IMG/VR virus record: IMGVR_UViG_2537562231_000015 | Span: 1-40,123 of that record | Reading direction: 5' to 3' (one strand) | DNA length: 40,123 bases | From: a virus | Taxonomy: Duplodnaviria > Heunggongvirae > Uroviricota > Caudoviricetes | Part shown: positions 1,189-31,645 of the stretch, piece by piece | Layout: each line of letters starts with the position of its first letter | Position numbering within the stretch: position 1 is the first letter of the stretch | Notes under the pieces: generated by a model | What the model was told of the DNA's origin: nothing | The model's database searches: none | What the model saw: the letters and a program-made list of their open reading frames with translations, nothing else | Program-made: the position numbers and the translations under genes

Positions 1189-1789
1189 GATTCACTCTCA
1201 TTGTGTCAATAACATGGACCGCCCCGCCTTCATGCGCGGTGCCACCGGAAATAATCGTTTCGTTGATATACGGATAGATCGTGATTTCTTCGCCAAGATA
1301 GCTGGCGGCTCCCACCCAATGCGGTCCGCTGGTCTGCAGATTGATGGACATGCCGATCATGTGGCGGCTACATGGTTTGGCATCGCTTATCAGTCGCTCA
1401 AGTTCCAGATAGGTATCTTCAGTGATGCCCTGGTCCTGCACGCCGATATCCAGGCGAAACGTGCCCGGTGCCTCTCCGGTCTGCCACCACTCAATAATGC
1501 GGATCAGAAAGCCGAACGGCTCCACCACCCGCCGCACGGCACTGGTGGTCCCTTTATGCTGATGAATATAAAAAGCATCCTTCACCACCTGGCGCTTGAC
1601 GCTTTCTGTCCAGCCCTCGTCCCAGCGATCCACAGAGAACGCCCAGGCGAGATAAGGCAGGAAACTGACCGGACAGGTTGCCGGATTCCACAAGTCACGA
1701 AGCGGCACCTGCAGATCAGAAATCCCGCTGCAGGTTTGCGCCAGTCGGCGCTCCAGTGGTGTTGAACCCGGTGGCAGCAGACTATTCAT
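1184..1789 (-). CDS. I: Tail/baseplate protein (P2 gpI-like)
   Basis: 201-aa ORF; position between J and H in conserved P2 order; overlaps H start. Confidence 0.8.
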   Translation of the reverse strand: MNSLLPPGSTPLERRLAQTCSGISDLQVPLRDLWNPATCPVSFLPYLAWAFSVDRWDEGWTESVKRQVVKDAFYIHQHKGTTSAVRRVVEPFGFLIRIIEWWQTGEAPGTFRLDIGVQDQGITEDTYLELERLISDAKPCSRHMIGMSINLQTSGPHWVGAASYLGEEITIYPYINETIISGGTAHEGGAVHVIDTMRVNP

Positions 1790-2690
1790 CCGTTCCTCCG
1801 TTGGTTACGCTCCACTGCGTACATGATGCCGCCTGTGTTTTGTTCAGGACCACATCCGCCAGAGGAGAAGCCAGCTCCACACGCTGCACCCCCTCAACAT
1901 GCAGGGCGGCAAAGATGGCGCTACGGCGAATATCCCGACCAAGACGCGTCTGACTGGCGATGTACTTCTGCAGGCTGGCTTTTGCCGCTGCCATTACCGG
2001 CTCTGCTTCCGGTCCAGGATAGAGAAAAATGGTGGCTTCCACGCGATACGGGATGATTTCTGCGCTGCGAACCGTAAGACGGTCAGCCACCGGGCGGACG
2101 TTCTCACTGTTCAGAGCTTTTTCCACCACGTCCAGCAGGTCTTTTTCTGCGGTTCCATCGCCTTCGCGGCTAAGGACAGTCAGCACCACCTCTGCAGGTG
2201 CCGGGCTGGTTGCACTGGCATCCGCCACCCGACCGTCGGCGCTTCGGGCATGAAATTCATAAGCTGCAGTTGGCCCCGCAACTGAAAGCCCTTCAAAGGC
2301 TGCAGGCACACGCAGGCGTAACGCTTCATCGCTTTCCATCACAGCTGCAACGGGCGGCACAGCGTCATTATCAGCAGGCGTCACCGTCAGGCGTTTCACG
2401 TTGTAGTTGGCAGCGAGCTGGTCAAGATCGCTGCCCATCGCGTAAGCCACCATCACAGCCTGCGCGGCTTCGTTAATGCGCTGGCGCAGAAGCAACTCAC
2501 GGTAAGCGTTCTCCTGCAGCAATTTGGTGACGGGTTCAGATTCCAGTTCCAGCGTGCGGATCACTGCTTCCTGCTCATCTTTCGGATGAAGCGCAACAAA
2601 TTCGGCCTTGCGTTCGGCAAGCAGCGTCTCAAAGTCCGGCACATCCACAATCTGCGGCGCAGGCAACTGCGAAAGGTCAATCACTGCCAT
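1782..2690 (-). CDS. J: Baseplate assembly protein J (P2 gpJ-like)
   Basis: ORF 1782..2729; start trimmed to MAVIDLSQLPAP which matches the gpJ N-terminal pattern; synteny W-J-I. Confidence 0.8.
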   Translation of the reverse strand: MAVIDLSQLPAPQIVDVPDFETLLAERKAEFVALHPKDEQEAVIRTLELESEPVTKLLQENAYRELLLRQRINEAAQAVMVAYAMGSDLDQLAANYNVKRLTVTPADNDAVPPVAAVMESDEALRLRVPAAFEGLSVAGPTAAYEFHARSADGRVADASATSPAPAEVVLTVLSREGDGTAEKDLLDVVEKALNSENVRPVADRLTVRSAEIIPYRVEATIFLYPGPEAEPVMAAAKASLQKYIASQTRLGRDIRRSAIFAALHVEGVQRVELASPLADVVLNKTQAASCTQWSVTNGGTDE

Positions 2691-3036
2691 TCTCTGCTCC
2701 AGTTGATACGGAAAGGGAAACAGGCACACCGTTATTACGCCGCCCGCTCAGCGCCACCACCATTGAACCGTCAAAATTGCTGTTAATGGTGATGGAATCC
2801 AGCGTCAGCCGTGGCTCCCAGCGACTCAGCGCCACATACACTGCCGACATGACCTGCAGGCGTAATGCCGGATTTTGTGGCTGGTCTATTAGCGACGACA
2901 GCAGGGAACCATATTCACGACGAGCAATGCGGCTACCCTGCGGCGTCAGCAGAATGTCCCGCACCGACTGGCGCAGATGGTCAATATCAGTAATGACTTT
3001 GCCGCTGGTATTGTTCATCCCGCTATAAAGCGTCAT
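2677..3036 (-). CDS. W: Baseplate wedge protein W (gp25-like)
   Basis: 119-aa ORF, size and position typical of P2 gpW; overlaps J start. Confidence 0.8.
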   Translation of the reverse strand: MTLYSGMNNTSGKVITDIDHLRQSVRDILLTPQGSRIARREYGSLLSSLIDQPQNPALRLQVMSAVYVALSRWEPRLTLDSITINSNFDGSMVVALSGRRNNGVPVSLSVSTGAENGSD

Positions 3037-3611
3037 ACCGGGCCTCCGGTTGTATCGCCGCCTTTCAGGACGCCAGTATGCTGATGCGCATCAACCACGA
3101 TCCCGTTAGAACTCATCGCTCCGCCGCCCTGGGTAACGCCACCATTGATCACCACTTCGCTGTTAATGCGCGTGCGGTCAGCCTCCAGTACAAACTCACT
3201 GGTTTTCATGGTGATGTTGTCAGCGGCCTCAATGACCATTGATTTGATGCCCCTGACATACCAGCGCCCGGTGGCGGGTTCGTATTCAAACCAGCCACCG
3301 TCAGGATGTTCTGTCACGCAGGCGTCCGCCGACGTCGACGGTGGCGCGAACTGATTCGAATAGATGGCGGGTAACGCAAAGGCGGTTTCCAGATTGCCGC
3401 CCAGACTCAGCAGCACCACCTGCTCACCTTCCGATGGTCGCCACCATGTGCGGGCATTCCCGGCACGCAGCGTCAGCCAGCTGATCCAGTTGGTTTCAAG
3501 CTCGCCCGTTTTCACCCGGCAAAGCCAGTTTTCCCTGTCCACTTCGGTGACTACCCCTGTGCGGATCAGGTTGGTGATAAGGCGCATGATTTCGGTTAAT
3601 TGTGCGTTCAT
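3033..3611 (-). CDS. V: Baseplate spike/assembly protein V
   Basis: 192-aa ORF in V position of the P2 gene order. Confidence 0.8.
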   Translation of the reverse strand: MNAQLTEIMRLITNLIRTGVVTEVDRENWLCRVKTGELETNWISWLTLRAGNARTWWRPSEGEQVVLLSLGGNLETAFALPAIYSNQFAPPSTSADACVTEHPDGGWFEYEPATGRWYVRGIKSMVIEAADNITMKTSEFVLEADRTRINSEVVINGGVTQGGGAMSSNGIVVDAHQHTGVLKGGDTTGGPV

Positions 3612-3679
3612 AGGGAAAGGTTGCCATCAGGGGAAGAAAGGCGGCAGTGCTGCAACTTGTATCAGTGCTGATACAAAGA

Positions 3680-4126
3680 TCACCCCGCCAGCCATTGCAG
3701 AATCATGTCGCGGGTCATTGCCTCAACATCATCATTTACACCCAGCAGGCGGCGCTCTGCGTAACGGACCTCCGGTCCTTTGCGACTGACGCGATCACGC
3801 AGGCCGTAATGGTGAACACGGGCAATACGCTGCACCTTGCCTTCAAACTGTACGCTGGCAGAGTCGGCGCTGGCGGCAGTTTTCAGGTATTTTGTGGTGC
3901 GCAGCTTTGCAAACATCTGACGTTTGATGCGCCCCTTCTTGCTGCGTGCTGTTACCCTGCGCGGTTCATAACTGCTGCCATCTGGATTGCGCTGCATCCT
4001 GATATTCTGCTGCTGTGTCCGGCGCAGTTCCTGCGCCAGCTGGCGCATCATGCGGCTTCTCGTGGCTGGTTCCAGATTCGCCAGCAAGGCACTCAGCCAG
4101 TCGTCCACTTTCTGCAGTTCAGCCAC
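3680..4126 (-). CDS. S: Tail completion protein S
   Basis: 148-aa ORF, synteny R-S-V. Confidence 0.75.
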   Translation of the reverse strand: MAELQKVDDWLSALLANLEPATRSRMMRQLAQELRRTQQQNIRMQRNPDGSSYEPRRVTARSKKGRIKRQMFAKLRTTKYLKTAASADSASVQFEGKVQRIARVHHYGLRDRVSRKGPEVRYAERRLLGVNDDVEAMTRDMILQWLAG

Positions 4127-4571
4127 GTTTCACCGTCCACATTTCTTCAGGTTCATCGGGTTCTGCTACAGCTTCAACGCTCGACACACTGCCGTCAGTG
4201 CTGACCAGCACACGTTCCGTCAGTTGCAGGTTAAGACTGATATCACAGACATCGTTGCGCAAAATATCCACATCAAAGGTGAATAGCTTTTCCCGTAACG
4301 CCGGGTTATTGATGGCATCGGGCTGGTTATCCCGCAGCCACAGCAAAACCGGGGCCATAAGCAGATTCTGGTCGCCGCTGAAATCCTCTATCACCACGTT
4401 CAGGGTGTAGCGGTACTCCCATGACATGGAGCTGGCCCCCGTGGCAACCAGCGAACCGTTATCCACAAACAGATGCAGTTTGTCCGGGTTATTGCGGGCA
4501 TAAGGCACCGCTTTATTGAGGGCGTGGCGCAGGGATTGTGGTTTGTTCACTGTTTCGCTCCTGACACGCAA
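4119..4571 (-). CDS. R: Tail completion protein R
   Basis: 150-aa ORF, synteny lysB-R-S, overlaps S start. Confidence 0.75.
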   Translation of the reverse strand: MRVRSETVNKPQSLRHALNKAVPYARNNPDKLHLFVDNGSLVATGASSMSWEYRYTLNVVIEDFSGDQNLLMAPVLLWLRDNQPDAINNPALREKLFTFDVDILRNDVCDISLNLQLTERVLVSTDGSVSSVEAVAEPDEPEEMWTVKRG

Positions 4572-4803
4572 TAATCATGTCCACTTTGTCTGCACAGACC
4601 GCCCAGGCGGCCTCCGTTTCATCCTGCAACGCGTTCAGGTCACCGTTAGTGCGCGGCGCTGCCTGCCCCAGCCGACACGGCGTCACTCGCGGACAACCAC
4701 TGACGGTAAGCTGCACCTCCGGTGAGTGCCGGACGTTCCCGCAGCCGGATAATGTCAGCAGGCAAAGGAGTATCAGCCCAGCGGCGTAAATCCTCGTTCT
4801 CAC
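4513..4803 (-). CDS. lysC: LysC-like o-spanin lipoprotein (Rz1-like), embedded in alternate frame of lysB 3' region
   Basis: 96-aa ORF with lipobox-like LTLSGC near N-terminus; overlaps the lysB ORF out of frame. Confidence 0.5.
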   Translation of the reverse strand: MRTRIYAAGLILLCLLTLSGCGNVRHSPEVQLTVSGCPRVTPCRLGQAAPRTNGDLNALQDETEAAWAVCADKVDMIIACQERNSEQTTIPAPRPQ

Positions 4804-5074
4804 GTTTCAGTTCCTCAATCCGGTGTTGTCGTTGTCTCAGTAGTGCGCTGGTCTGTTCTGCGTCGGCATAGAGTCGCGCCTGCTCCCGGTTGTTGGTTTC
4901 TGTCAGAATGGACAGGCTGATAAGCTGGCTGTTGCTCTTTGCCAGTGCCTGGCTTTTGCTCCGAAGCACATCTGCCTGCATGCTGATGGTCTGGCTGGCA
5001 TCAGCCAGCCGCCACGTCTGCCAGCCCAGCGCCGCCAGTAATAACGCCAGCACAACCAGCAGCAACCGGTTCAT
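4646..5074 (-). CDS. lysB: LysB-like i-spanin (Rz-like)
   Basis: 142-aa ORF with N-terminal hydrophobic segment and coiled-coil-like charged region; follows lysA. Confidence 0.7.
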   Translation of the reverse strand: MNRLLLVVLALLLAALGWQTWRLADASQTISMQADVLRSKSQALAKSNSQLISLSILTETNNREQARLYADAEQTSALLRQRQHRIEELKRENEDLRRWADTPLPADIIRLRERPALTGGAAYRQWLSASDAVSAGAGSAAH

Positions 5075-5448
5075 GCTGCTACCTGTTGCGCCATCTGATT
5101 ACGGGTGATCCAGAAGGCAATAACGGTCAGTAGATAAAAGACCAGGGTAATAGCCCACCCCGTCCAGGCGAGACTGACGACAATCAGCAATCGCATCATC
5201 CAGCTGATAAATACGTTTTCTTTTCGGGTAATTGTCTTCAGCAAAGATGCCCTCAACTCCTGCCAGAGCGGGCCGTTCTTAATTAACGCAGCCAGTGATA
5301 CCGGAATTACTGCCCATGTCAGCAGACAGGCTACCCAGACACCAGATGCTGCCAGTACCGGAAAAATCCCCTGCGGATACACCATTGCGGCGATTAACAG
5401 CGCTATCCATAACATCAGAAACAGCCCGCTGATTACTTTCTTTTTCAT
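5071..5448 (-). CDS. lysA: LysA-like multi-pass membrane protein (lysis timing)
   Basis: ORF 5071..5520; start trimmed to MKKKV preceded by AGGGAG; several hydrophobic helices. Confidence 0.6.
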   Translation of the reverse strand: MKKKVISGLFLMLWIALLIAAMVYPQGIFPVLAASGVWVACLLTWAVIPVSLAALIKNGPLWQELRASLLKTITRKENVFISWMMRLLIVVSLAWTGWAITLVFYLLTVIAFWITRNQMAQQVAA

Positions 5449-5449
5449 T

Positions 5450-5962
5450 TCAGTTTGCTCCCTGTAAGCACCAGGCCATCTCCCGCGCACGGCGGTTATC
5501 CAGCCCCTGATTAAACACACCTTTTACATACACCCAGCGCGGCAACTGTCGGCACGCATCCGCCCAGCGCCGCTGATTGAGCAATTTCACCAGCGTGGAA
5601 CTGCAGGCATTGCCCGTACCCACGTTGAAGGCAAACGACACCGCAGCGTCATACACCTTCTGCGGCGGCTGTTGCTTCACACACCTTTCCAGCGCCCGCT
5701 CCACACGCAGCACGTTGGAGATCAGCCCTTCTGCTGCCTGTCGCTCCGTAATGGTTTTGCCGGGAATGACGCCCGACGTATTACCAATGCCGTCGGTCCA
5801 GACACCCGCGCTGCACTGATACGGCTGCAGACGACAACCTTCGTAATCGGCAATCAATTTCAGCCCTTCCACGGAGGTGTGAAGCTGCTGAAAACCCGGC
5901 AGCGTGGCAGCAATAGCCAGCACGGCCCCGACAAGGCAGCGTTTAACGATTGATGGATTCAT
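5450..5962 (-). CDS. K: Endolysin (P2 gpK-like lysozyme)
   Basis: 170-aa ORF in K position of the P2 lysis cassette; N-terminal signal-anchor-like segment. Confidence 0.8.
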   Translation of the reverse strand: MNPSIVKRCLVGAVLAIAATLPGFQQLHTSVEGLKLIADYEGCRLQPYQCSAGVWTDGIGNTSGVIPGKTITERQAAEGLISNVLRVERALERCVKQQPPQKVYDAAVSFAFNVGTGNACSSTLVKLLNQRRWADACRQLPRWVYVKGVFNQGLDNRRAREMAWCLQGAN

Positions 5963-6158
5963 AGTCCTCCCGCGAGATCTGCCCGTCGCGCAGAAGCTGG
6001 TAGGCTTTGTGTTTGTAGTACCAGTTGATAGCCAGCATCAGCACACCAATCATCAGGCCGCCCAGCGTTGAGGCATCCTTGATGGACAAATCGCCCAGCC
6101 AGGCCAGCACGACGGCGATGCAATACGTGATAAAGGCGCTGATTCGCTCAAGCGTCAT
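5943..6158 (-). CDS. Y: Putative holin
   Basis: 71-aa ORF with two hydrophobic helices and charged C-terminus, directly upstream of endolysin. Confidence 0.6.
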   Translation of the reverse strand: MTLERISAFITYCIAVVLAWLGDLSIKDASTLGGLMIGVLMLAINWYYKHKAYQLLRDGQISREDYESINR

Positions 6159-6161
6159 AAT

Positions 6162-6365
6162 TCAGTCCCATAGCTGGACGGTCTGCACGGTGGTGGTGGT
6201 CGGAATGTCCGGCAACTCCACCTGCAGCCCGTGAGGTAAAAAGGGGCCGTATTCGGCAAGCCCCGGATTTGCCTTCAGTACCTGCTCCGTGACACCCTGC
6301 GTGCGCCCGTAATGACGCCAGCAAAGCGCGTCCACCGTGTCATACTGATGCGCACGCACTTTCAT
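6162..6365 (-). CDS. X: Tail protein X
   Basis: 67-aa ORF in X position of P2 order. Confidence 0.75.
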   Translation of the reverse strand: MKVRAHQYDTVDALCWRHYGRTQGVTEQVLKANPGLAEYGPFLPHGLQVELPDIPTTTTVQTVQLWD

Positions 6366-6829
6366 CAGATAAGCTCCACTGTGCAGTGCGGCGCATCCTG
6401 CACCCGGCTGATGGCCCAGCGGGCGTCACGCCACAAATCACCGCTTGCTTCCGCCAGTTCCTCGCCCCGCTTCACACCGGACGCCGTGGCGTCATAGTCC
6501 TGGTAACGTTCGTTGAGCATGGCGCGTGCCCAGCAGTAAACCGCGTTGAAATAGTGCTGAATGCGCTCACTTTTGCCGTCCAGCTGTTCCGCCGGAACCT
6601 CTGCCAGCGAGGCATACCCCAGCATCTGCTGGCGTCTGCGAAACTCATACAGCTCTGCGTTGACCTCCGAAATTGCCGACAGCGCAACCTGCTTTAAACG
6701 CGGCTGCGTCACCGTGCCGTCAGTGCGCATCACGCTGCGAAACTCCGACAGGTCCACATCAGGCCAGAACGGCGTATTTCTGATGATTTCCGCCTGTTCC
6801 GGTGCCTGTTCTGGCGCAACAAACTTCAT
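6365..6829 (-). CDS. L: Head completion/stabilisation protein L
   Basis: ORF 6365..6892; start placed at MKFV preceded by GGAGAA; synteny M-L-X. Confidence 0.7.
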   Translation of the reverse strand: MKFVAPEQAPEQAEIIRNTPFWPDVDLSEFRSVMRTDGTVTQPRLKQVALSAISEVNAELYEFRRRQQMLGYASLAEVPAEQLDGKSERIQHYFNAVYCWARAMLNERYQDYDATASGVKRGEELAEASGDLWRDARWAISRVQDAPHCTVELI

Positions 6830-6924
6830 GCTGCTTTCTCCTGAAATAAAGGGCGGTGGACGGGGTTTTGATGTGGCAGTGCCTTTCGCCACCCCGTGCC
6901 GCCCGTGCGCGGGGGCACGTTCTG

Positions 6925-7575
6925 TCAGCGGCTGTCATTGCGCAGTCTGCGCTCCAGCTGCTGTTTGTCTTTTTTCACGCCACAGCGGGGATCGAGCTGT
7001 AACGCATGGTTGAGATGATTAAGGGCGGAAGCCGGATTGCTTTCACTCAGGACAGCGCCAATCGCTTTATGCAGACGTGCCCGTGACTGGTCCGGCATAT
7101 CCAGACCGTCTGTCAGCTCCAGCGTCTGCAGCAACAGATCAGCATCAAAGCCGGTGGCGGCAAGCATTGCGCTCTGCGCCGCGTCTGCCATTTCCTCTGC
7201 CAGCACGGTCTGCACGTTGCGGTTACCCAACGGCATCACCCAGCCATGACGCAGGGCGTGACGCCCGATCTCCAGCGCCCCGGCATAATCTCCGGCATCA
7301 ATGCGCCACAGCATCACGTACATCAGCACGTCATCCTGTTGCGCGCCTCCGCCAGCCAGGACACCCTCTGCCCAGGCGGCGTATTTCGGCAGCAGTTCCA
7401 CCTTGATTTCCGCTTTTTTGACCGTGGACTGAACGCCCTTGAGACGGCGGCGGTCTTCCGCCAGTTGCAGCAGCATCAGGTCATAGCCCGACGCGTGGCG
7501 AACACTGCCACCCTCGCGAGCGGCCTGTTCAGCCTGAACGCGCAGGCGATGCTGCCGTGCGGGACTCAGGCTCAT
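6925..7575 (-). CDS. M: Terminase small (endonuclease) subunit M
   Basis: 216-aa ORF in M position. Confidence 0.75.
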   Translation of the reverse strand: MSLSPARQHRLRVQAEQAAREGGSVRHASGYDLMLLQLAEDRRRLKGVQSTVKKAEIKVELLPKYAAWAEGVLAGGGAQQDDVLMYVMLWRIDAGDYAGALEIGRHALRHGWVMPLGNRNVQTVLAEEMADAAQSAMLAATGFDADLLLQTLELTDGLDMPDQSRARLHKAIGAVLSESNPASALNHLNHALQLDPRCGVKKDKQQLERRLRNDSR

Positions 7576-7578
7576 GAA

Positions 7579-8637
7579 TTACACTCCGGTTTCTGCTGCG
7601 GCGGCGCTGAAGTCACCAATCTGGATGTTTTCCACCAGTGCGGCGCAGCGGTAGTCCTCAACCACATAGGCTTCGTTAACGGATTCAAAATTTTCAATCC
7701 GGTCACGTTTCGGGTTGTCGATAACTGAACGGCGGCGGGTATCTTCCTGCCAGTAGATGGACAGGTTATCCAGACGGGTGATCAGCAGCGCATTCGGCGG
7801 GAAGAACGGCGCACGCACGGCCTGCAGGCCACCCATGCGTTTCTGACTGATGATCATATCGGCTGCCAGTTTTTCACTGTTTTCCTGCTCTTTGTTGACC
7901 AGCGGGAAATACTTGTCAGACAGCAGTTCACGACCGCAAATCACCACCAGATCGTCATCGTCCTGGTAGACCACGTCGATAAGCTCATTGACCGCATCCA
8001 TCACAACAGCGTCCAGGTTGGCATATTCGCCACCTTTCCCGACTTTCACCGCACCCGGTGTGGTTTCGCCGCCCGTGGTGGTGCTGCCCATGACGTGATC
8101 CGGTGCATCCTCACGGATTTTCTGCAGCCAGCCTTTGTTCACATCCTGCAGCAGCGGGTTTTCACTACGGTTGGAGGTTTTCGCACGCTTCACGCCGTTA
8201 AAGCCGATCATGATGCGGTCCAGTGCCTGACGTTTCACGATGGCGTCACGGATACGCACCTGGAAATCCTGAAACTTCGCCCACAGGTCCAGCTTCGCGT
8301 AGGTCAGCACCGTGTCAAAGTTGGTCTGCTCGCATTTGTATTCCACATCGACCATCAGCGTCGGATCGACAGGTTCACGCTCTTTCGCGGTGGTGTCAGT
8401 GGTTCCGGCAATGGTGCTGCCAACACCCAGCCCCAGCAGCTGACCGGACTGCTCAGTCACTGGCGTGACGTTAATCAGCGTCAGGAAAGCGGCGGACTGC
8501 TGGATCTGGTCTTCCAGCGTCTGCTGCACAGACGGCTCTACAGTGAACTTGCTGGACAGTTCTTCAACTGCCACACCGTTCAGACGTGCCAGTTGCTGCA
8601 GGTAAGCGTTAAAAGCAAAGCGGGTATTCTTCTTCAT
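7579..8637 (-). CDS. N: Major capsid protein N
   Basis: 352-aa ORF, size and position of P2 gpN. Confidence 0.85.
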   Translation of the reverse strand: MKKNTRFAFNAYLQQLARLNGVAVEELSSKFTVEPSVQQTLEDQIQQSAAFLTLINVTPVTEQSGQLLGLGVGSTIAGTTDTTAKEREPVDPTLMVDVEYKCEQTNFDTVLTYAKLDLWAKFQDFQVRIRDAIVKRQALDRIMIGFNGVKRAKTSNRSENPLLQDVNKGWLQKIREDAPDHVMGSTTTGGETTPGAVKVGKGGEYANLDAVVMDAVNELIDVVYQDDDDLVVICGRELLSDKYFPLVNKEQENSEKLAADMIISQKRMGGLQAVRAPFFPPNALLITRLDNLSIYWQEDTRRRSVIDNPKRDRIENFESVNEAYVVEDYRCAALVENIQIGDFSAAAAETGV

Positions 8638-8653
8638 CAGGTTTTGTGCTCCA

Positions 8654-9487
8654 TCAGCAATTGGTCAGAGTGTCAGCGGGGGCGTTACCGCCTGTTGCAC
8701 GCTGGCGGTAGTCCTGGCGGCTGTCTTCATGACTCAGCTTATTCACCAGTTCGTTAAAGGCGGTTTGCTGCTCCTGCAGAGCAGTCTCCAGCTCAGACAG
8801 GCGTTCTTCCTGCTCAGACAGGGATTTTTCGGTGCGTGCGCTCAGGTTCTGCTGCTCAGTGGCGACCAGCTCCACGGCCTTATGCACATCAGAGAACCGG
8901 GCGTCATCGGACTGCTCTTTTTTGGTAAACAGCGCCGTGACACGGGCAAACAGGGACGGCTTGTCCTCCTGGATTTCTTCCAGTTCGATCACCGTTTCCT
9001 CTGCAGCGGTAAAAAGATTGGCGGGATTCTGCTTGCGGTTTGTCAGCGGGTTATGGGCTGCACTGGCGCTGAATGTCAGCATTTCAGTGCCCAGACTGGC
9101 AGGGTCATCAGTGGCCGCCAGGCCGACCAGGTAGGCTTTGCCCGTATCAGCAAACTTCGGGCTGACTTCCATAGATGTGAATAATTTCTGGCCTTTTTTC
9201 ACCAGCTCCACCAGGGACTCCGTTGGCTCAACGTCGGCATACAGCGCCATCTTGCCCGCCAGCGGACCTTCCGTGATTTCTTCAGCAAACAGCGCCGTCA
9301 CCTTGCCGTAGCGGTTAAAGGTGCTGTCCGGCAGATAAGACTTAATGTGCTCAAGGTTAATCAGCGCGGTATACACCGCCGGGTTGTAGCTGGCTGCCAT
9401 CTGTTCCAGCCATTCACGCTGGATTTCACGTCCGTCGGTAGTGGCACCTTCCACCCCGATGCGAAAACGCTTTGCTTTCACTGTCAT
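8654..9487 (-). CDS. O: Capsid scaffolding protein O
   Basis: 277-aa ORF, acidic coiled-coil-like C-terminus, divergent from P. Confidence 0.85.
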   Translation of the reverse strand: MTVKAKRFRIGVEGATTDGREIQREWLEQMAASYNPAVYTALINLEHIKSYLPDSTFNRYGKVTALFAEEITEGPLAGKMALYADVEPTESLVELVKKGQKLFTSMEVSPKFADTGKAYLVGLAATDDPASLGTEMLTFSASAAHNPLTNRKQNPANLFTAAEETVIELEEIQEDKPSLFARVTALFTKKEQSDDARFSDVHKAVELVATEQQNLSARTEKSLSEQEERLSELETALQEQQTAFNELVNKLSHEDSRQDYRQRATGGNAPADTLTNC

Positions 9488-9564
9488 GAGCCGTGCTCCG
9501 TTAGAAAAAACTTACTGGAGCCTTATGGTTGCGGTGATGGGGGCAGTGAAACAATGCGCGGTAT

Positions 9565-9582
9565 TTGTACCGACAACCACAC
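9565..9582. promoter_or_regulatory. TGT-N12-ACA dyad in O/P divergent intergenic region (candidate Ogr-type late activator site)
   Basis: TGTaccgacaaccacACA between the O and P starts; motif also expected by chance about ten times in 40 kb. Confidence 0.3.
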
Positions 9583-9629
9583 AAACCGCAGGCGGGGAAA
9601 GCCTTCATTCAAGGCTGTAGGTTTGTGCC

Positions 9630-11396
9630 ATGAACACCACACTGACACCCGCAGATCTCGATCCCCGTCGGCAGGCCATGCTGCTGTACTTTCAGGGATA
9701 CCGCGTAGCCCGCATTGCTGAAATGCTGGGCGAGAAAGTTGCAACCGTTCACAGCTGGAAAAAACGCGACAAGTGGGGTGACTATGGGCCGCTGGATCAG
9801 ATGCAGCTCACCACCGCCGCACGCTACTGCCAGCTCATCATGAAGGAGCACAAAGAAGGGAAAGATTTCAAAGAGATTGACCTGCTGGCGCGCCAGTCTG
9901 AGCGCCACGCGCGGATCGGCAAGTTTAACAATGGCGGCAACGAAGCCGACTTAAACCCTAACGTCGCCAACCGCAACAAAGGCCCGCGTCGTCAGCCGGA
10001 AAAGAACGTTTTCACTGATGAACAGATTGAGAAGCTGGAAGAAATCTTCCATTCCTCCATGTTCAACTACCAGCGCCACTGGTGGGAAGCCGGAAAAACC
10101 AACCGCATCCGCAACCTGCTGAAGTCACGCCAGATCGGCGCGACCTTTTACTTTGCCCGTGAAGCCCTGATTGACGCCCTGCTTACCGGACGTAACCAGA
10201 TTTTCCTTTCTGCCAGTAAGGCACAGGCTCACGTCTTTAAGCAGTACATCATCGACTTCGCCAAAGAAGTCGAGGTGGAGCTGAAAGGCGATCCGATGGT
10301 GCTTCCTAACGGGGCCACGCTTTACTTCCTCGGCACCAATGCCCGCACGGCCCAGAGTTACCACGGCAACCTGTATCTGGATGAATATTTCTGGATACCG
10401 AAATTCCAGGAGCTGCGCAAAGTGGCTTCCGGTATGGCTATTCACAAAAAATGGCGACAAACCTATTTTTCCACGCCATCCAGCCTGACCCACAGTGCTT
10501 ATCCGTTCTGGTCCGGTGCGCTGTTCAACCGTGGGCGCAACAAAGCCGATAAGGTGGACATCGACCTGTCCCACAGCAATCTGGCCCCCGGCCTGCTGTG
10601 CGCAGACGGGCAATACCGCCAGATAGTCACCGTGGAAGATGCGGTGCGCGGCGGCTGTAACCTGTTCGACCTTGACCAGTTGCGCATGGAGTACAGCCCG
10701 GACGAATACCAGAACCTGCTGATGTGCGAGTTTGTGGACGATCTCGCGTCCGTGTTCCCGCTCAGCGAACTGCAGGCGTGCATGGTGGACAGTTGGGAAG
10801 TCTGGACCGACTTTCATGCACTGGCCCTGCGCCCGTTTGGCTGGCGCGAGGTGTGGATCGGTTATGACCCGGCAAAAGGTACGCAGAACGGCGACAGCGC
10901 CGGATGCGTGGTGGTGGCACCGCCAGCCGTGCCGGGCGGTAAGTTCCGCATTCTTGAGCGTCACCAGTGGCGCGGGATGGACTTCCGCGCCCAGGCTGAC
11001 GCCATCAAAAAACTGACTGAACAGTACAACGTGACCTACATCGGCATCGACTCGACAGGTGTCGGCCACGGGGTTTACGAGAACGTGAAAGCGTTTTTTC
11101 CAGCCGTCCGGGAGTTTGTCTACAACCCCAACGTTAAAAACGCCCTGGTACTCAAGGCCTACGACATTATCAGTCACCGCCGTCTGGAGTTTGACGCCGG
11201 GCACACCGACATTGCGCAGTCATTCATGGCAATCCGTCGCGCAACCACCGCCAGTGGCAACCGCCCAACCTATGAAGCCAGCCGCAGCGAAGAAGCCAGC
11301 CACGCCGATCTGGCTTGGGCAACGATGCACGCACTGTTTAACGAACCGCTGCAGGGCGAGTCCGCCAATACCAGCAATATTGTGGAGATTTTTTGA
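9630..11396 (+). CDS. P: Terminase large (ATPase) subunit P
   Basis: 588-aa ORF; N-terminus resembles P2 gpP (RRQAMLLY..QG.RV..IAE); divergent from O. Confidence 0.9.
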   Translation: MNTTLTPADLDPRRQAMLLYFQGYRVARIAEMLGEKVATVHSWKKRDKWGDYGPLDQMQLTTAARYCQLIMKEHKEGKDFKEIDLLARQSERHARIGKFNNGGNEADLNPNVANRNKGPRRQPEKNVFTDEQIEKLEEIFHSSMFNYQRHWWEAGKTNRIRNLLKSRQIGATFYFAREALIDALLTGRNQIFLSASKAQAHVFKQYIIDFAKEVEVELKGDPMVLPNGATLYFLGTNARTAQSYHGNLYLDEYFWIPKFQELRKVASGMAIHKKWRQTYFSTPSSLTHSAYPFWSGALFNRGRNKADKVDIDLSHSNLAPGLLCADGQYRQIVTVEDAVRGGCNLFDLDQLRMEYSPDEYQNLLMCEFVDDLASVFPLSELQACMVDSWEVWTDFHALALRPFGWREVWIGYDPAKGTQNGDSAGCVVVAPPAVPGGKFRILERHQWRGMDFRAQADAIKKLTEQYNVTYIGIDSTGVGHGVYENVKAFFPAVREFVYNPNVKNALVLKAYDIISHRRLEFDAGHTDIAQSFMAIRRATTASGNRPTYEASRSEEASHADLAWATMHALFNEPLQGESANTSNIVEIF

Positions 11397-12430
11397 TGGG
11401 AAAGAGTAAGAAAAACCGCACTGCGGCGACGAATCAGATCCAGCATAAAAACCAGACTACAGCCGAAGCATTCAGCTTCGGCGATCCCGTTCCAGTTCTG
11501 GACCGCCGAGAATTACTGGACTATGTGGAATGCGTACAGATGGACCGTTGGTATGAGCCGCCCGTCAGCTTTGACGGACTGGCGCGCACCTTCCGCGCTG
11601 CCGTGCATCACAGTTCCCCGATTGCAGTAAAGTGCAACATTCTGACCAGTACCTATATCCCTCATCCGCTGCTCAGCCAACAGGCTTTTTCGCGTTTTGT
11701 ACAGGACTATCTGGTATTTGGTAACGCCTATCTGGAGAAACGCACGAACCGCTTCGGTGAAGTTATCGCCCTTGAACCTGCGCTGGCAAAATACACCCGA
11801 CGCGGGTTAGACCTGGATACCTACTGGTTTGTGCAATACGGCATGACCACGCAGCCGTATCAGTTCACGAAAGGCAGCATTTTCCATCTGATGGAACCGG
11901 ACATAAATCAGGAGATCTATGGCCTGCCCGGCTATCTTTCTGCCATTCCGTCAGCCCTGCTCAACGAGTCCGCCACGCTGTTCCGCCGCAAGTATTACAT
12001 TAACGGCAGTCATGCAGGCTTCATCATGTACATGACCGATGCCGCGCAGAACCAGGAGGACGTGAACAACCTTCGCAATGCGATGAAAAGCGCCAAAGGA
12101 CCAGGTAACTTCCGCAATCTGTTTATGTACTCGCCTAATGGTAAAAAAGACGGTCTTCAGATTATCCCGTTGTCAGAAGTCGCAGCGAAGGATGAGTTTC
12201 TGAATATCAAAAACGTGAGCCGTGATGACATGATGGCTGCGCACCGCGTGCCGCCGCAAATGATGGGGATAATGCCTAATAATGTTGGGGGTTTTGGGGA
12301 TGTGGAGAAGGCCGCGAAAGTATTTGTTATGAATGAGTTACTACCAATTCAAAAACATATTCTGCAACTTAATGAATGGGCTAAAAAAAACATCATCTCA
12401 TTCAGTGAATACTCTGTGGAGTGTATGTAA
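11393..12430 (+). CDS. Q: Portal protein Q
   Basis: 345-aa ORF overlapping P stop; P2 gpQ size and position. Confidence 0.9.
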   Translation: MMGKSKKNRTAATNQIQHKNQTTAEAFSFGDPVPVLDRRELLDYVECVQMDRWYEPPVSFDGLARTFRAAVHHSSPIAVKCNILTSTYIPHPLLSQQAFSRFVQDYLVFGNAYLEKRTNRFGEVIALEPALAKYTRRGLDLDTYWFVQYGMTTQPYQFTKGSIFHLMEPDINQEIYGLPGYLSAIPSALLNESATLFRRKYYINGSHAGFIMYMTDAAQNQEDVNNLRNAMKSAKGPGNFRNLFMYSPNGKKDGLQIIPLSEVAAKDEFLNIKNVSRDDMMAAHRVPPQMMGIMPNNVGGFGDVEKAAKVFVMNELLPIQKHILQLNEWAKKNIISFSEYSVECM

Positions 12431-12441
12431 ATTGAATAATG

Positions 12442-12460
12442 GCAGGTACTATACCTGCCA
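12442..12460. terminator. Hairpin between convergent Q and the GmrSD-like gene
   Basis: GGCAGGTA-cta-TACCTGCC 8-bp stem; U-rich tract only moderate on either strand. Confidence 0.4.
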
Positions 12461-12466
12461 CTGAAC

Positions 12467-14248
12467 TTATATTTTAGCAAACGTTTCTAACGCCAAGCTA
12501 TCTGTTCTTTCTTTTATTAATGAATCATCCCATTTATGTTCTCTTGCTTCTGACTCACTAACAAACTCTGTAACTAATTTTAAATCAGATTTTTTATAAG
12601 ATTCTATTTTTTTGTGCAACTCATAATTCTTGCAATCTTCATTAAGTGAAAAACAGAGTGGTAGTAAATTACCAATCATACCCACGACTGACTCGTTAGT
12701 TTTGCTTTGAGATGATATGTGTTCCAAAGAAACTATATCCATTTTTAACTCTCGCGTCCCTCGTCTGATACGTTCCAACTTGTCAAAAATATAAACAATC
12801 AACTTCCTTTGCCCAGACTTTTTATTTGTATAAACAATATTCTTTGAAAATGCTTGTTTGAATATATTTTCTGAAGGCCCTTTCTGTGTAAAATAATCTA
12901 ATGCGTCATTAATAACACCCTCAACATCTCTTTTATTTAATGCCTTATTCATTCTTACTGCTAATACAGAATATTTTGCATCGATTCCAGATGGTCTTAG
13001 ACGACATACTGCATTAAACTTAAAGTGAAATGACTCTAAGGACTTCAAACATTCTATCAGCATTGATTGTGTAAGGGCTCTCGGTTTCTCTTTACGTTTT
13101 CTAAGTAATGAGAGTACAAATGGTCGAGGAATACTCACATTAAAAATCTCGAATGCTTTTAACGAGTTGTAAATTTCACGCTGATCAGGTTGAGGCCAGT
13201 CATCTGTATTTGGCGCTATTATTTTACAGTATAATTCAACATCATCATATAATTCGTTCAGAAATGATGCTGATGACAATAAAGTATTCTCATCTTGAAT
13301 CTCACGTTTAAAAGCACGATAAAGTTGATCTTCTCCAATATAATTATACTTAGAAAGCCACCACGTTCTAATATAATCAGCAATAGTGCTATTACTATCC
13401 CTAGACTCAATTTGAGTAACGATATAATCCCATTTTGTTTTTGCAATATCTACCGGATATGTTTGAGTGCAAGTTTGGAATACTTTATTCTTTATCAAAT
13501 CAATTGAACTTAAGTTTATCCCTCGAGCATTCAACACTTCAAAAATATCATAAGCATCATCCTCCTTACCTACAGATATTTTTACCAACTTCAAATAATT
13601 GGTAATCATTCTATATACAGCAGTCAAACAAAATATATAATCTTGGTTATTATAATGTTTTGCACCATCTCGCAACAATGCAGAACAGAGTGATTTCCTC
13701 CCTAGTTTTCTAGAAAGAAAAATTCCTGCATAACTTATACGTACATCCTCTTCACAAGATTCATCAACTTGATGCTCTTCGCGATCTTGATATTTTAACT
13801 TAAAATATGTTCTATCGCTATTTTTTGCTAATTTTTCAATAAATGTCTCACCATTTGAGGCTAATTGGCTTCTGCTAAATGTAGGACTCACAGTAACGAT
13901 ATATGTTTTAAATATATCATCCGCTAATGAATCTTGCCCTAAGGAACGCAATTTACGCGATATTAATGAAAGCAATATAGTAATAACTGAAAATCGTTGT
14001 TGTCCATCAACCACTTCTAATACATCATCACTATCTGCTCCAGAAAGAACAATAGTCCCTATAAAATATTCTGAACACTCCAAGTTCTGTCCATCTTCAT
14101 TCAACCTTATGTTTCTGACAATATCTTGCCATAATTCTTCAAGCTGAAGCTTTTCCCAACTAAACTCACGTTGATTACGTGGAATAACATATCTTTGTTT
14201 TACAGATAGAATGTTTTTTATATTTAGTGGTGTTGCATCAAAATTCAT
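12467..14248 (-). CDS. GmrSD-family (DUF262/ParB-like N-terminal, DUF1524-like C-terminal) putative modification-dependent nuclease
   Basis: 593-aa ORF; N-terminal YVIPRNQREFSW and VVDGQQR motifs typical of DUF262; C-terminal LEHI...GNLLPL resembles the DUF1524 His-Me finger; markedly AT-rich versus flanking phage genes. Confidence 0.65.
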   Translation of the reverse strand: MNFDATPLNIKNILSVKQRYVIPRNQREFSWEKLQLEELWQDIVRNIRLNEDGQNLECSEYFIGTIVLSGADSDDVLEVVDGQQRFSVITILLSLISRKLRSLGQDSLADDIFKTYIVTVSPTFSRSQLASNGETFIEKLAKNSDRTYFKLKYQDREEHQVDESCEEDVRISYAGIFLSRKLGRKSLCSALLRDGAKHYNNQDYIFCLTAVYRMITNYLKLVKISVGKEDDAYDIFEVLNARGINLSSIDLIKNKVFQTCTQTYPVDIAKTKWDYIVTQIESRDSNSTIADYIRTWWLSKYNYIGEDQLYRAFKREIQDENTLLSSASFLNELYDDVELYCKIIAPNTDDWPQPDQREIYNSLKAFEIFNVSIPRPFVLSLLRKRKEKPRALTQSMLIECLKSLESFHFKFNAVCRLRPSGIDAKYSVLAVRMNKALNKRDVEGVINDALDYFTQKGPSENIFKQAFSKNIVYTNKKSGQRKLIVYIFDKLERIRRGTRELKMDIVSLEHISSQSKTNESVVGMIGNLLPLCFSLNEDCKNYELHKKIESYKKSDLKLVTEFVSESEAREHKWDDSLIKERTDSLALETFAKI

Positions 14249-14368
14249 AACTTATCCTCAGAGACAACAAATTGATAATAATGTCCTATTCAAATGGCTA
14301 ATGATATGACATAAAAAAAGAAAAATGCAATGTACTACAAGAATATCAGTAAACGTTTCTAGCGCGCG

Positions 14369-14387
14369 CTCGTATCCCCGCCACGCC
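14369..14387 (-). other. cos site of the P2/186-like prophage (19-nt cohesive-end sequence)
   Basis: Minus strand reads GGCGTGGCGGGGATACGAG flanked by AAAGCGGGC and CGCGCGC, homologous to P2 cos GGCGAGGCGGGGAAAGCAC and oriented toward Q. Confidence 0.6.
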
Positions 14388-14432
14388 TGCCCGCTTTATG
14401 TAGTGGTTTTCATGCAGGTGCATGATCTACGC

Positions 14433-14458
14433 AAAAGCCCGCCAGTTCCGGCGGGCTT
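14433..14458 (-). terminator. Putative intrinsic terminator
   Basis: AAGCCCGCC/GGCGGGCTT 9-bp stem; on the minus strand followed by TTTTG. Confidence 0.4.
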
Positions 14459-14727
14459 CAGCTAAAACGATCCTCAAACGATCATGCGGATTCATGCGGC
14501 ATAGACATGCACCTGTGCGCCTTTAATCAAACATGGAATAATTATTTGTTCAGCGGGAGTAGCAATATAGCGGCGGCTATTGGTTTAGAAGGGCTTATGA
14601 TGACTGTTTTTGGTTAGAGTTTGAACGCCCAACATCGCCGGGCGGTGGTATTACTACATCATGGCAATGAGAAGGGGTGAACCCTTTGCCAGTTTGTCCG
14701 ACGATGATATCCATCCAGAGTAAGCGT

Positions 14728-15387
14728 TTATTCTGTTGAGATTGTAGATATTTCGGCTTGTTTTTTCTCTATGTACATCCGACATTCCGCAAGGCATTTA
14801 CCTACGGCACCACCGAAGTTTGGCCCTGACGAAAGCAGCAATGCATCGACATTCTTGATTGATTCAAAGAAGGAAGGTGAGGTTTCTGGATTAAGGTATG
14901 TCATCAATAACATCCTTGCTGAAAGGGTGCGATGCGATGATGTAATGTAGCTTTCATGCGCTGCATTTCTCTTATCAATAAAATCGTTATTACCCTTAAG
15001 AATGTAATCCATTGCAAGGTTATAATCGTTTTTGTACCTATTAGATTCAAGCGCTAAGGATAGGTACTGGGCACATGATTCCCGCACGTTCCGACATTCT
15101 TCTTTTTTTATCTCAATTTCCGTAGCAATTTGAGTTTGCACTTTCAGTGCTTTGGTTTGCTGCGCAATATTTTTGTCGAATTCAGATGATTGCCGTTTTG
15201 AGGTGATTTCAAATTGGCGGTGTGAACGATTCATAGCCCGCCATGCAACAAAAGCAGTTGCCGCAGCTGGCAGAACAGCTTTTGCGAGGTCAAACCATGG
15301 AGTCAGGGGCTCCTTTTGACTCGCAATTTGTACCGTTACCACGTCTTTAGCGGGCTTCAGTACTTCCAATAACTGAATGATGTCCAT
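14728..15387 (-). CDS. Hypothetical protein with one predicted transmembrane helix (cargo gene in the old/tin position)
   Basis: 219-aa ORF; hydrophobic segment LAKAVLPAAATAFVAWRAM; no family recognised; lies between cos and the tum/DinI module. Confidence 0.5.
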   Translation of the reverse strand: MDIIQLLEVLKPAKDVVTVQIASQKEPLTPWFDLAKAVLPAAATAFVAWRAMNRSHRQFEITSKRQSSEFDKNIAQQTKALKVQTQIATEIEIKKEECRNVRESCAQYLSLALESNRYKNDYNLAMDYILKGNNDFIDKRNAAHESYITSSHRTLSARMLLMTYLNPETSPSFFESIKNVDALLLSSGPNFGGAVGKCLAECRMYIEKKQAEISTISTE

Positions 15388-15588
15388 TGCCTTTTTCCTG
15401 AGAAAAAGAAACCATCATAGCAAAAAGCCTGCCGCTTGCTAGGGGCTTCCCGCGCCTAACCCTTCACGAAATTGAATCCTCTCCGGCCTTTTCGTTATCT
15501 GTCCGCATTGAGGGCGGCTAACGCCTCGCACGGCTCGTTGTTCAACCTTGCTGGCGCCAGAAGCAAGTTCAGACGCCAGCAACGTTTC

Positions 15589-15822
15589 TTAATGCAGCCA
15601 GCTGTCGTCTTCCCACACCTTCTGCATAATTTTCATCACTTGTTTTCTTTCTTCGTCCAGTTGCAGTCCGGTCAGTTCCACACCGTTAGAGCTACCTTTG
15701 CGGATACGAATTACCGTTTTGGGATACAGGGGGCGCAGATTGCGGTAAAGCTCGGATTCAAGGGCGTCCAGGATAGACTGGCTAATCTTCTGCTCTTTAT
15801 CGATCATTATTTCAATGCGCAT
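15589..15822 (-). CDS. DinI-family protein
   Basis: ORF 15589..15894 trimmed to MRIEIMIDK... preceded by GAGGTGA; aligns along its length with E. coli DinI (MRIEV.I.K...IDAL..EL...WE...W). Confidence 0.8.
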   Translation of the reverse strand: MRIEIMIDKEQKISQSILDALESELYRNLRPLYPKTVIRIRKGSSNGVELTGLQLDEERKQVMKIMQKVWEDDSWLH

Positions 15823-16174: not shown

Positions 16175-18589
16175 TTAATACAGGTTCCGCCACTTATCAT
16201 CTTCCCGCAAACGCTGGTTCCGATAGAAGATACGCAAGCCTGCTCCTGACGGAATACTGCCACCGCGAAGGAGCAAATCGACTTCTTTCTCGCTGCCATC
16301 AAATCCTCTGGACTTCAGTTCATAGACGAGCTGCTGATGCTGATGATCTGTAATTCGCTGTTTGTAGTCTTTACGCCGTTTCGGTTTCACCAAGCGCAAC
16401 CTTGCTGCCAGCTCCCGGCGATCTTTTTTGCTCATACTGTGCAGGTAATCGTGCAATTCCTTGTCATCCATGCGGGTAATGTCCGTTCTGGAGCCCCCAT
16501 CAGCTGATTTGTCTTTCCCTTGTTGGTACAAATTTTCAGCAAGGGGACAGTTATTGCCACGAGTCCAAGGGGCGCAAGCGCCCTGGTCGGCTGCCGCCTC
16601 CTGAACGTCAACGGCTTTACGAACCATTTTCCACTTCACTGCATGAGTGCAGATCTTGCCCTCTGCAATGGGTGACCAGATGCCATAAATACGAATACCG
16701 TGATCGCCATAGGCGGTCGGCTCTTCGTTAATTTCATAAGCAGTTCTGATGAGGTGATATTTACGGGGAACCAGTACACCTCCCTGCTTCATGATATAGG
16801 TGGCAAAACAACCAGCATCAGCAGCAGCCAGAATGGCATCAAGGCGCGGGTTATCCAGTACCGGCACACCTGCTTTTTTGTCACCCTGCTGCCTTGCCGC
16901 CTGACCAGCCAGCAATCGCAGTTCACGGTAAGCCTGACGCCCCGGAATGCCAAAGAAGCGGAATTGCTGAACACGATGCAAAGACGCCCAGGCATTCACG
17001 TATTCAGCATTATCACGCAGAGATTTACCCGTTTCCTTGCTGATCTCGCCAGCCAGACCACGCCCGTCAATGTTCTTGCTGATATATTTCGCGATGTAGC
17101 TTGTCGGCGTTCCTTTGCGCGGGTTAATCAACTCAGACTTAAAGCGTGGTCCCGTGTTATTCCCCAGCTCCTCGCGGTCTTCACGAATGGCAAACTTACG
17201 CAACAAAGCAGTAATGGCGCGGCGATCTTTTTTGCGCATAAAACACAACAGGTGCCAGTGAACTGTACCGTCATGATGCGGCTCAGCCACCCGCACGCCA
17301 TACCAGCGCAATCCGGCTTTGTGCATAGCCTTACGAAATGCAGCAAACATGCCGACCAGATAATCGCTGCTTTGTCTTACTGTCGCGTTGGTCCAGGTCG
17401 GGTTTGGCCTGCCGTTATTTAGCGTGGAATGGAAACGTGACGGACAGGTGATGGTGTAGAAAACGGCGCAGTCACCACGCATTTCCGCGATAAGCTCCAG
17501 ACCTTTAACGCAGGCCATCATCTCATTGCGGCGATGCGCCGGGTTGCTGCTGCTGGCGTTTACCACATCCTCCATGTCCAGCATGTCGCCGTCTTCGTTC
17601 ACCAGTTCATGAGAACGGAAAAACTCCAGCGACTTACGGCGCTGCTCACGTTTATGCATCACGGCTTCATAGCTGACATAGGGAGATGCTTTTTTGCTGA
17701 CCAGACAGACAGCACGCAACTGCTCTTCCCGCCATTCGCAACGCATCTTCCATAATTTCCGATACCACCAGTCGGCGCACAGCATACGCGCCAGCGAACC
17801 CGGAATGAGTTCATAGGGCACAGGTTTGCGGCGGTTTCTTTTCCGGCGGAGTTGCTCAAACGCAGGCGGTATGACATCCAGTCGCAGGGTTTCTGCTGCC
17901 ACCTTTTCCCATGTCTTGCGGATTTCTTCCGGCTTAACATCATCGGAGGCGTACAAATCACCACAAGCGGCATCAAGACACATGCTCATATGCGCAGCGA
18001 CAAGGGTGGACAGGCGTTTCACCTGATCCTGACTCATTTCAGGCAGGATCAGCAGACCGTCCAGCCCTTCATGGCTTGCCATAAAACGAAAAGATGCAGA
18101 TAGCTGGCTGTCGCGTACATGCTCCAGTCGTTCCAGGCATGGCTTAATCGTCTCACGCAAATAGCGGGAATAAGCCTTTGGCCTGCCCAGGTTGCTGAAG
18201 TATTTAATACGTTGCATCAGCGGCTTGCTGATATGGGAAGGCTGGGCGTTGACATCCGCCAGAATGACCATATCCGGATTAAAACGCTGCTGCTCATGCG
18301 CCAGCTTTGCCCGGCTAATTAGCTTATCCTGCTCCATTTCGCGCTGGACAGGATCACGGGATTCATTAAAGAAATAACGCTCCCAGACCTGATCACTCAG
18401 TGCCTCGCGGCGCAGTTGTTCCTGCTCGTTATCGGCAGCGTACAGAGTGATCAGGTTTGAAAGCGCAGAAACCGGCGCAACTTCCGCCGGGTCCAGATAA
18501 GGGTTAATGGCCTTTTTCGGGCTGTTCCATGAGAATGCTGCGGCAGCCTCGTTAAAGCCGCAGCAGTTGTTCATATCGGCATGACTCAT
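16175..18589 (-). CDS. A: Replication initiation protein A (rolling-circle nicking endonuclease)
   Basis: 804-aa ORF; contains [19 protein letters not shown] and [12 protein letters not shown] matching conserved P2 gpA motifs. Confidence 0.9.
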
Positions 18590-31590: not shown

Positions 31591-31645
31591 TGAGCGTAGG
31601 AACTCCAGTGGTAGCTGTAACTGTTACTTCAAGGAGGCTGCCATC

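Follow-up and report, generated by a model that had tools for sequence, protein, structure and literature searches.

Several described defence enzymes resemble the product of a 593-codon gene that lies between the portal gene Q and the cohesive-end site (cos) of a P2-like prophage in IMG/VR record IMGVR_UViG_2537562231_000015, a Caudoviricetes record of which positions 1 to 40,123 were analysed (hereafter the window). HEC-06 protects E. coli from phages and is inactivated by the substitutions Q79A and R80A in its DGQQR motif and by E471A and H472A in its nuclease motif, as given in bioRxiv 10.1101/2024.01.29.577857. HEC-06 has also been reported to block T4, and a 22%-identical homologue, HEC-06_Bact, restricts T-even phages but not T4-GT7, which contains unmodified cytosine (bioRxiv 10.1101/2025.02.28.640651). 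Diversity among the GmrSD variants of E. coli is extreme, and their inhibition by T4 internal proteins depends on the subtype (PMC12373910). GmrSD of E. coli CT596 and BrxU (PDB 7P9K) are type IV enzymes directed against DNA containing glucosylated hydroxymethylcytosine (glucosyl-hmC) or hydroxymethylcytosine (hmC), whereas DndI (PDB 9JFL) and SspE (PDB 6JIV and 7DRS) are nickases that sense phosphorothioate (PT). DndI cuts DNA irrespective of PT and is freed from self DNA by PT sensing via Y25, the equivalent residue of SspE being Y30 (PMC11662687).

The window protein is 100% identical to WP_001008289.1 and, judged from its sequence, would be a stand-alone GmrSD-superfamily enzyme of a HEC-06-like clade. 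We read the gene as probable lysogenic-conversion cargo that an E. coli prophage of the P2-like (Fels-2/186-type) group carries in its cos-proximal defence hotspot, and we estimate the probability that it is GmrSD-superfamily prophage defence cargo of the type IV kind at about 0.6. Membership of the superfamily is nearly certain. Both domains named in the first-pass annotation of this DNA, which had been made from the letters of the stretch, were recovered above the curated Pfam cut-offs: GmrSD_N (DUF262, PF03235; E 2.1e-32, 113.3 bits versus a gathering cut-off of 33.2, profile positions 1-199 of 199) and GmrSD_C (DUF1524, PF07510; E 1.1e-11, 45.2 bits versus a gathering cut-off of 23, profile positions 2-136 of 138). 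The DGQQR and His-Me-finger-like motifs to which that annotation pointed correspond to D81-R85 and to E509-H510, N527 and N536, all of which were invariant, together with Q26, R27, S30 and W31, in an alignment of 27 homologues of 36-82% identity. In an AlphaFold2 model (mean predicted local distance difference test score, pLDDT, 85.5), a long helical linker joins the alpha/beta domain at the N-terminus to a C-terminal unit of two strands and a helix, in which strand 506-510, strand 528-532 and helix 533-539 form a beta-beta-alpha arrangement bearing the E-H, N and N residues.

Profile searches connected the protein with HEC-06. The PADLOC HEC-06 profiles PDLC04154 (7.4e-75, aa 3-587, full length), PDLC04157 (2.7e-73) and PDLC04155 (2.6e-65) matched it, whereas the PADLOC models for SspE and for type IV restriction endonucleases matched far more weakly (mREase_IV at 2e-14, over short stretches). 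PHROG 21165 also matched, and a search of NCBIfam returned no named family. Like HEC-06, the window protein is a single DUF262-linker-DUF1524 polypeptide with a DGQQR motif and an E-H nuclease motif (EHICP in HEC-06, EHISS here), and neither sequence contains the RLFDS nucleotide-binding motif of BrxU. In contrast to HEC-06, which was discovered embedded in Hma systems, the window gene is prophage cargo beside cos.

When the model was compared with the PDB using Foldseek, the only significant matches were DndI (9JFL; E 2e-16, template modelling (TM) score 0.64), SspE (3e-15) and BrxU (8e-6, TM 0.33), the next match having an E value >0.1; by sequence, phmmer gave DndI (9e-12) and SspE (8e-6) as the nearest solved chains. 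The CT596 GmrSD and BrxU share the superfamily, the architecture, the motifs and the proposed action with the window protein but are distant from it, and the protein falls in GmrSD cluster CLS_026, not in CLS_006 or CLS_010. With DndI and SspE it shares the domain order and the DGQQR motif, and its length (593 aa) is close to that of DndI (596 aa). The rank of DndI as nearest solved structure by both sequence and fold, with SspE next and PADLOC SspE models also matching, raises the possibility that the protein is a PT-sensing restriction component that cuts DNA without PT and needs host dnd or ssp genes. We consider this improbable because of the residue at the sensing site, the lack of PT genes nearby and the toxicity of a DndI-type enzyme in hosts without PT. 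The tyrosine of the P-x-Y-Q-R patch, Y25 of DndI and Y30 of SspE, is Asn25 here (P23-R24-N25-Q26-R27), and position 25 is N in 14, F in 8 and Y in 5 of the 27 homologues. None of the open reading frames (ORFs) searched, all within the 40-kb window, resembled dnd or ssp genes, their matches being to phage, satellite or insertion sequence (IS) genes or to nothing, and no dnd, ssp or methylase partner genes stood beside homologues in the contexts examined. Unlike the genes for DndI and SspE, to which the protein is at most 17% identical (17% for DndI), the window gene is solitary and mobile, moving between hosts on phages and plasmids.

The kind of gene, its locus and the exact protein are already on record. 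The gpA-gpQ region of P2-like phages is a cos-proximal defence hotspot, for which 18,150 E. coli loci display 1,650 gene arrangements (Rousset et al. 2022, PMC9122126); Table S5 (S5A) of that study lists WP_001008289 in the P2 hotspot as DUF262/DUF1524, and Supplementary Dataset 6 of Silas et al. 2025 (PMC12373910) assigns it to CLS_026. The cosL-Q interval of P2-like phages had been named a hotspot for foreign genes since the 1990s, with ctx of phiCTX as an example (Dodd & Egan 1996 and Nakayama et al. 1999, both referenced by PMC5694545). Our additions are modest: they fix both cassette borders, one in the portal gene and the other at cos+26, note the transfer of a recoded portal C-terminus together with the cargo, and recognize two independently assorting cassettes around a 150-bp cos island.

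The prophage is reversed relative to the P2 map. Alignment with the cos sites annotated in 186 and P2 located its cos as GGCGTGGCGGGGATACGAG (14387..14369, minus strand), and the annotated cos of 186 matches its first 13 bases and the GCGCGC after it. The sole match to the P2 19-mer, at 28413-28431, was rejected as the prophage cos; it is part of a neighbouring P4-like satellite. From the stop codon of Q to the cos 19-mer the distance is 1938 bp. The corresponding gap measures 167 nt in P2 and 176 nt in 186, and it is 179 nt in L028, an E. coli prophage that has the same cos and an empty site. The comparison of this spacing in relatives thus upholds the first-pass description of about 1.9 kb of AT-rich DNA with a single large gene, an intact 593-aa ORF, between Q and cos, and the gap of about 150 bp that it gave for P2 was roughly right, the measured value being 167 nt. 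One point can be refined: the gene lies in the Q-cos interval, but the foreign DNA begins inside Q, at about 12314.

What occupies this slot differs from one relative to the next. We surveyed 60 evenly spaced records of the 1294 E. coli records that matched Q and cos, and in the 42 for which the portal-cos island could be joined the slot held the window gene in 3, other cargo of about 0.6-2 kb in 38 and nothing in 1. Annotations of the cargo included P-loop/KAP NTPase, AIPR, TIR, SieB, DprA, PIN, HIRAN, STAS-like and DUF4145 proteins, an S1 peptidase, an ATP-dependent nuclease, ImmA/IrrE, a 69%-identical DUF262 allele and a GmrSD-annotated protein dissimilar to the window protein in BLASTP. 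The same slot contains AIPR in Salmonella phage RE-2010, Hypoth_Ymh in Escherichia phage vB_EcoM-813R9 and TIR in Escherichia phage 500465-1. The window gene itself is far from universal at this position: 50 of 5426 complete E. coli genomes carry it, in every case in the portal-gene-cos context, and its DNA is at least 99.5% identical among the matches listed (30 of the 50 carrier genomes). P2-like prophages of Enterobacter, Klebsiella and E. coli have alleles of 83% and 69% identity in this slot. More remote homologues stand alone on an IncFII plasmid, within the nin region of lambdoid prophages of Klebsiella, and on an Aeromonas chromosome. When 50,697 deposited phage genomes were searched with tblastn, no close homologue turned up, the only matches being to Listeria phages, with 23% identity; the gene is thus on record in prophages but not in phages that have been isolated.

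Because the slot is hypervariable and carries other defence-type genes in relatives, the window gene is very probably defence cargo without a packaging role. These findings, the solitary state of the gene and the HEC-06 profile match support the single-gene defence module proposed in the first-pass annotation. A function in the phage's own cycle, such as cos processing, packaging or degradation of host DNA, would fit the position of the gene, 120 bp from the cos cleavage site and beside the portal and terminase genes. Such a function is very improbable, given that the slot is empty in P2, 186 and L028 and filled with other cargo in 38 of the 42 sampled relatives, that homologues reside on plasmids, in lambdoid prophages and in chromosomes, and that the gene lies outside the conserved packaging signal, the 150-bp cos island.

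Three further observations concern this slot and its relatives. At 2570-4351 of L026, from E. coli 88-3493, the Q-cos slot holds another 593-aa protein, annotated with a GmrSD restriction endonuclease domain, that has no BLASTP similarity to the window protein; GmrSD-superfamily proteins of two or more unrelated lineages have thus come to occupy this position. In the Enterobacter prophage with the 83% allele (L012), a gene of the PAPS-reductase family (a DndC-like fold family) at 1017-2027 lies between a Dam-like methylase gene and gpA; it could be a DNA-modification gene, and is unlinked to the nuclease because it is absent from the window and from L011. The 55.5-kb E. coli plasmid record NZ_CP148585.1 (H120) has the same portal-cargo-cos arrangement at 11736-14040 and may represent a P2-like phage-plasmid or an episomal prophage.

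Comparison of the window DNA with that of RE-2010, 813R9, 500465-1 and E. coli EC16 divided the region into conserved and variable blocks (Table 1). Similarity to the three phages stops at 12313-12340, inside Q, where the last approximately 39 codons are AT-rich; the Q locus is identical in EC16, in which RefSeq labels it "phage portal protein". Portal C-termini vary between cassettes while retaining an NELxPxQ..LN.W pattern, and each cassette therefore supplies its own. Similarity resumes at cos, where 89-94% is found only over 14361/2..14510/12. At the cos end of the cassette, the sequence shared by five loci breaks off precisely 26 nt from the 5' nucleotide of the cohesive end, and this is so even between alleles of the same cargo gene. 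The right arm of cos contains TGCAT repeats and an AAAACC..AAAGCGGGC box that are common to P2, 186 and P4-like cos; this side is therefore conserved and the left side is free to vary. Between Q and the convergent cargo gene lies a hairpin for which folding gave free energies of -14.6 and -16.2 kcal/mol (z -3.9 and -3.7), with none of 200 shuffled sequences as stable. The annotated tQ/tW terminators of P2 and 186 have the same relative position, and the hairpin is likely a bidirectional terminator.

Table 1. Features of the P2-like prophage around the GmrSD-like gene (positions in the window)
Feature	Position	Strand	Remarks
Scaffold gene O	8654-9487	-	
Terminase gene P	9630-11396	+	
P and Q genes	up to ~12313-12340		Conserved block
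Portal gene Q	11393..12430	+	Pfam Phage_portal 4.6e-16; left hotspot border, convergent with cargo gene
AT-rich 3' tail of Q	12314..12430	+	Last ~39 codons, part of the swapped cassette; GC 0.316 versus 0.52 in the rest of Q
Cassette A	12314-14361		Variable; Q tail, hairpin, GmrSD-like gene and 113-bp upstream region
Hairpin between convergent Q and cargo genes	12438..12462	.	11-bp stem (terminator scan)
GmrSD-like nuclease gene	12467..14248	-	DUF262 + helical linker + DUF1524; 593 aa, ATG start, = WP_001008289.1
C-terminal DUF1524 His-Me finger nuclease domain	12491..12877	-	aa 458-586; Pfam GmrSD_C
His-Me catalytic core	12641..12724	-	E509-H510, N527, N536; invariant in 27 homologues
N-terminal DUF262 / ParB-like NTPase domain	13478..14221	-	aa 10-257; Pfam GmrSD_N
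DGQQR motif	13994..14008	-	D81-R85 (within VVDGQQRF); invariant in 27 homologues
Region upstream of cargo gene	14249..14361	-	113 bp, GC 0.28, AT-rich
Conserved cos island	14362..14512	-	150 bp; 19-nt cohesive end 14369..14387, 7 nt on the Q side, ~125 bp right-arm recognition sequence
Cassette B	14513..15516	-	Variable; other side of cos (position of P2 old/tin and 186 orf97); 219-aa ORF at 14728..15387
DinI-like gene through gene A, with small ORF	from ~15517-15591		Conserved block
Replication gene A	16175..18589	-	Pfam Phage_GPA 2.2e-127; right border of the published gpA-gpQ hotspot
Dam-like orphan methylase gene	18586-19503		Prophage's own

The cos island thus stands between two variable segments. 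Cassette B of the window occurs in 3 of the 5426 genomes and is missing from EC16, where the GmrSD-like gene is the same but cassette B is another; the two cassettes assort independently. Cassette B corresponds in position to old/tin of P2, which likewise lies in the locus between gpQ and gpA and likewise consists of swappable lysogenic-conversion or defence cargo but is on the other side of cos, the window gene being on the portal side. The 219-aa ORF of cassette B, which has no match in Pfam, PADLOC, NCBIfam or PHROGs, has a hydrophobic N-terminal segment and is a candidate exclusion or defence gene. We suggest that cassette A, which extends from about codon 307 of Q to a point 26 nt away from the cos end, is probably exchanged between related phages through recombination within the portal gene at one border and, at the other, at cos or immediately beside it.

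Base composition sets the cargo gene apart from its surroundings, with a GC content of 0.31-0.33 across 12501-14000 (0.32 for the ORF) as compared with 0.52-0.63 (about 0.55) in the late genes alongside. This foreign composition would suit a decaying, non-functional remnant of acquired AT-rich DNA, as would the outcome of a σ70 consensus scan of the 113-bp upstream region, in which no promoter was recognized. That account is scarcely credible, however, for a gene with an intact frame (the chance of 593 stop-free codons at its base composition is about 9e-24), with catalytic residues that are all invariant and with the near-identity among carriers described above. Its start codon is preceded by a GAGGA ribosome-binding site (14255-14259, 6 nt ahead of the ATG). 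Compared with the 83%-identical allele, the ratio of nonsynonymous to synonymous differences per site (pN/pS) is 0.16 (pN 0.12, pS 0.77); this ratio is given because synonymous sites are saturated and dS could not be computed. Saturation at synonymous sites with a pN of only 0.12 indicates that the gene is under strong purifying selection. It is an ordinary, solitary and intact nuclease gene with conserved catalytic motifs, and on comparative and conservation grounds both a pseudogene and a packaging role are effectively excluded. The upstream sequence differs even among alleles of the same cargo gene, and a search of Rfam found no RNA element within or near the locus.

In the mechanism that we propose for type IV defence cargo, the prophage would express the gene in the lysogen, and binding and hydrolysis of nucleoside triphosphates would license the nuclease against incoming phage DNA while host and prophage DNA are spared. 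The protein would be a type IV restriction enzyme if, as seems most likely, it discriminates by a hypermodified base, for instance the glucosyl-hmC found in T-even phages; by analogy with HEC-06, modification-dependent action is slightly favoured. Restriction of Dam- or Dcm-methylated DNA is unlikely, since the hosts are E. coli and the prophage encodes a Dam-like methylase, so that such methylation must be tolerated.

Several observations weigh against this assignment. The 20 GmrSD clusters that PMC12373910 examined, and from which it drew the systems it tested, do not include CLS_026. The closest solved structure, DndI, is held back by PT on self DNA and is not modification-dependent; SspE, too, senses PT on self DNA instead of cutting modified DNA. 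Specificity varies widely within the superfamily (PMC12373910 and bioRxiv 10.1101/2024.01.29.577857). The link to HEC-06 is made by profile match only, and the PADLOC "Orf5" models scored almost as high (5.8e-66), for which reason assignment to the HEC-06 clade is non-exclusive. The σ70 scan upstream of the gene, in which no promoter was recognized, is a further point against.

A defence nuclease of the same family could instead act independently of DNA modification, taking its cue from DNA ends, replication intermediates, a phage protein or the nucleotide pool, or serving as an abortive-infection (Abi) effector. Members of the family do differ in the logic by which they discriminate, the other occupants of the slot are mostly of Abi type (AIPR, TIR, KAP and PIN), and the available part of bioRxiv 10.1101/2024.01.29.577857 does not state the full phage range of HEC-06. 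However, the only direct tests of HEC-06-type enzymes show specificity for T-even phages with defence lost on T4-GT7, and five further GmrSD variants were active when scored on T-even phages, the only panel used (PMC12373910). On balance we regard modification-independent action as possible but distinctly less likely than type IV restriction.

More doubtful still is a joint reading in which the CLS_026 protein would see a DNA feature other than the cytosine hypermodification of T-even phages, or target rival P2-like phages or P4-like satellites, and cos would be one of two crossover points for cassette exchange. Annealing of cohesive ends between co-infecting genomes, together with a single crossover in Q, would then be enough to swap the cargo. 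We take the end of conservation at 26 nt, the junction inside the portal gene and the two independent cassettes flanking the island as points for the crossover idea, under which the P2 and P4 hotspots would both hug cos as a consequence.

As probable defence cargo, the gene enlarges the pan-immune system of E. coli by a further restriction-type gene on a prophage, with a predicted extra barrier of the GmrSD family in about 1% of E. coli strains that would be relevant to phage therapy and to the ecology of T-even phages. Counting other GmrSD-like alleles, perhaps 10% of the prophage lineage carries a barrier of this family. The target of the CLS_026 protein and any phage inhibitor of it, such as Ip-type proteins, are routine questions, and the exact cassette borders in the portal gene and 26 nt from cos should be useful for mining or engineering the hotspot.

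Adjoining the P2-like prophage is a P4-like satellite (about 24.4-40.1 kb) with the exact P2/P4 cos 19-mer at 28413-28431. Its genes include psu (28596-29168) and the alpha primase-helicase (35582-37915, 777 aa), and the immunity RNAs C4, isrK and c4-a1b1 lie at 31351-31591. The P4-type integrase gene of the satellite (24442-26415) is split by IS1, with the N-terminal part at 24442-25041, the IS1 transposase gene at 25052-25555 and the catalytic part at 25819-26415, and a second IS in the same element is marked by an IS66-family transposase gene at 32904-34517. The P4 hotspot between integrase and cos contains a 569-aa AT-rich ORF (26412-28121, minus strand, GC about 0.31) that is found in 20 of the 5426 E. 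coli genomes; searches of Pfam, NCBIfam and PHROGs returned nothing for it, PADLOC gave a weak Cas13-ApeA match (7e-6), and it is a candidate satellite-borne defence gene. The cohesive ends of the two elements differ, being GGCGTGGCGGGGATACGAG in the prophage (14369-14387) and GGCGAGGCGGGGAAAGCAC in the satellite (28413-28431), while the right-arm recognition motifs are common to both.

Directly downstream of the P2-like integrase gene (22019-23050) is an AT-rich HNH_2 endonuclease gene (23073-24086, plus strand, 337 aa) that matched PADLOC HNH (4.6e-9), PHROG 20585 and, below threshold, an NCBIfam model for a PT-DNA-binding restriction endonuclease. Its place corresponds to int-att, a minor defence position (PMC13586616).

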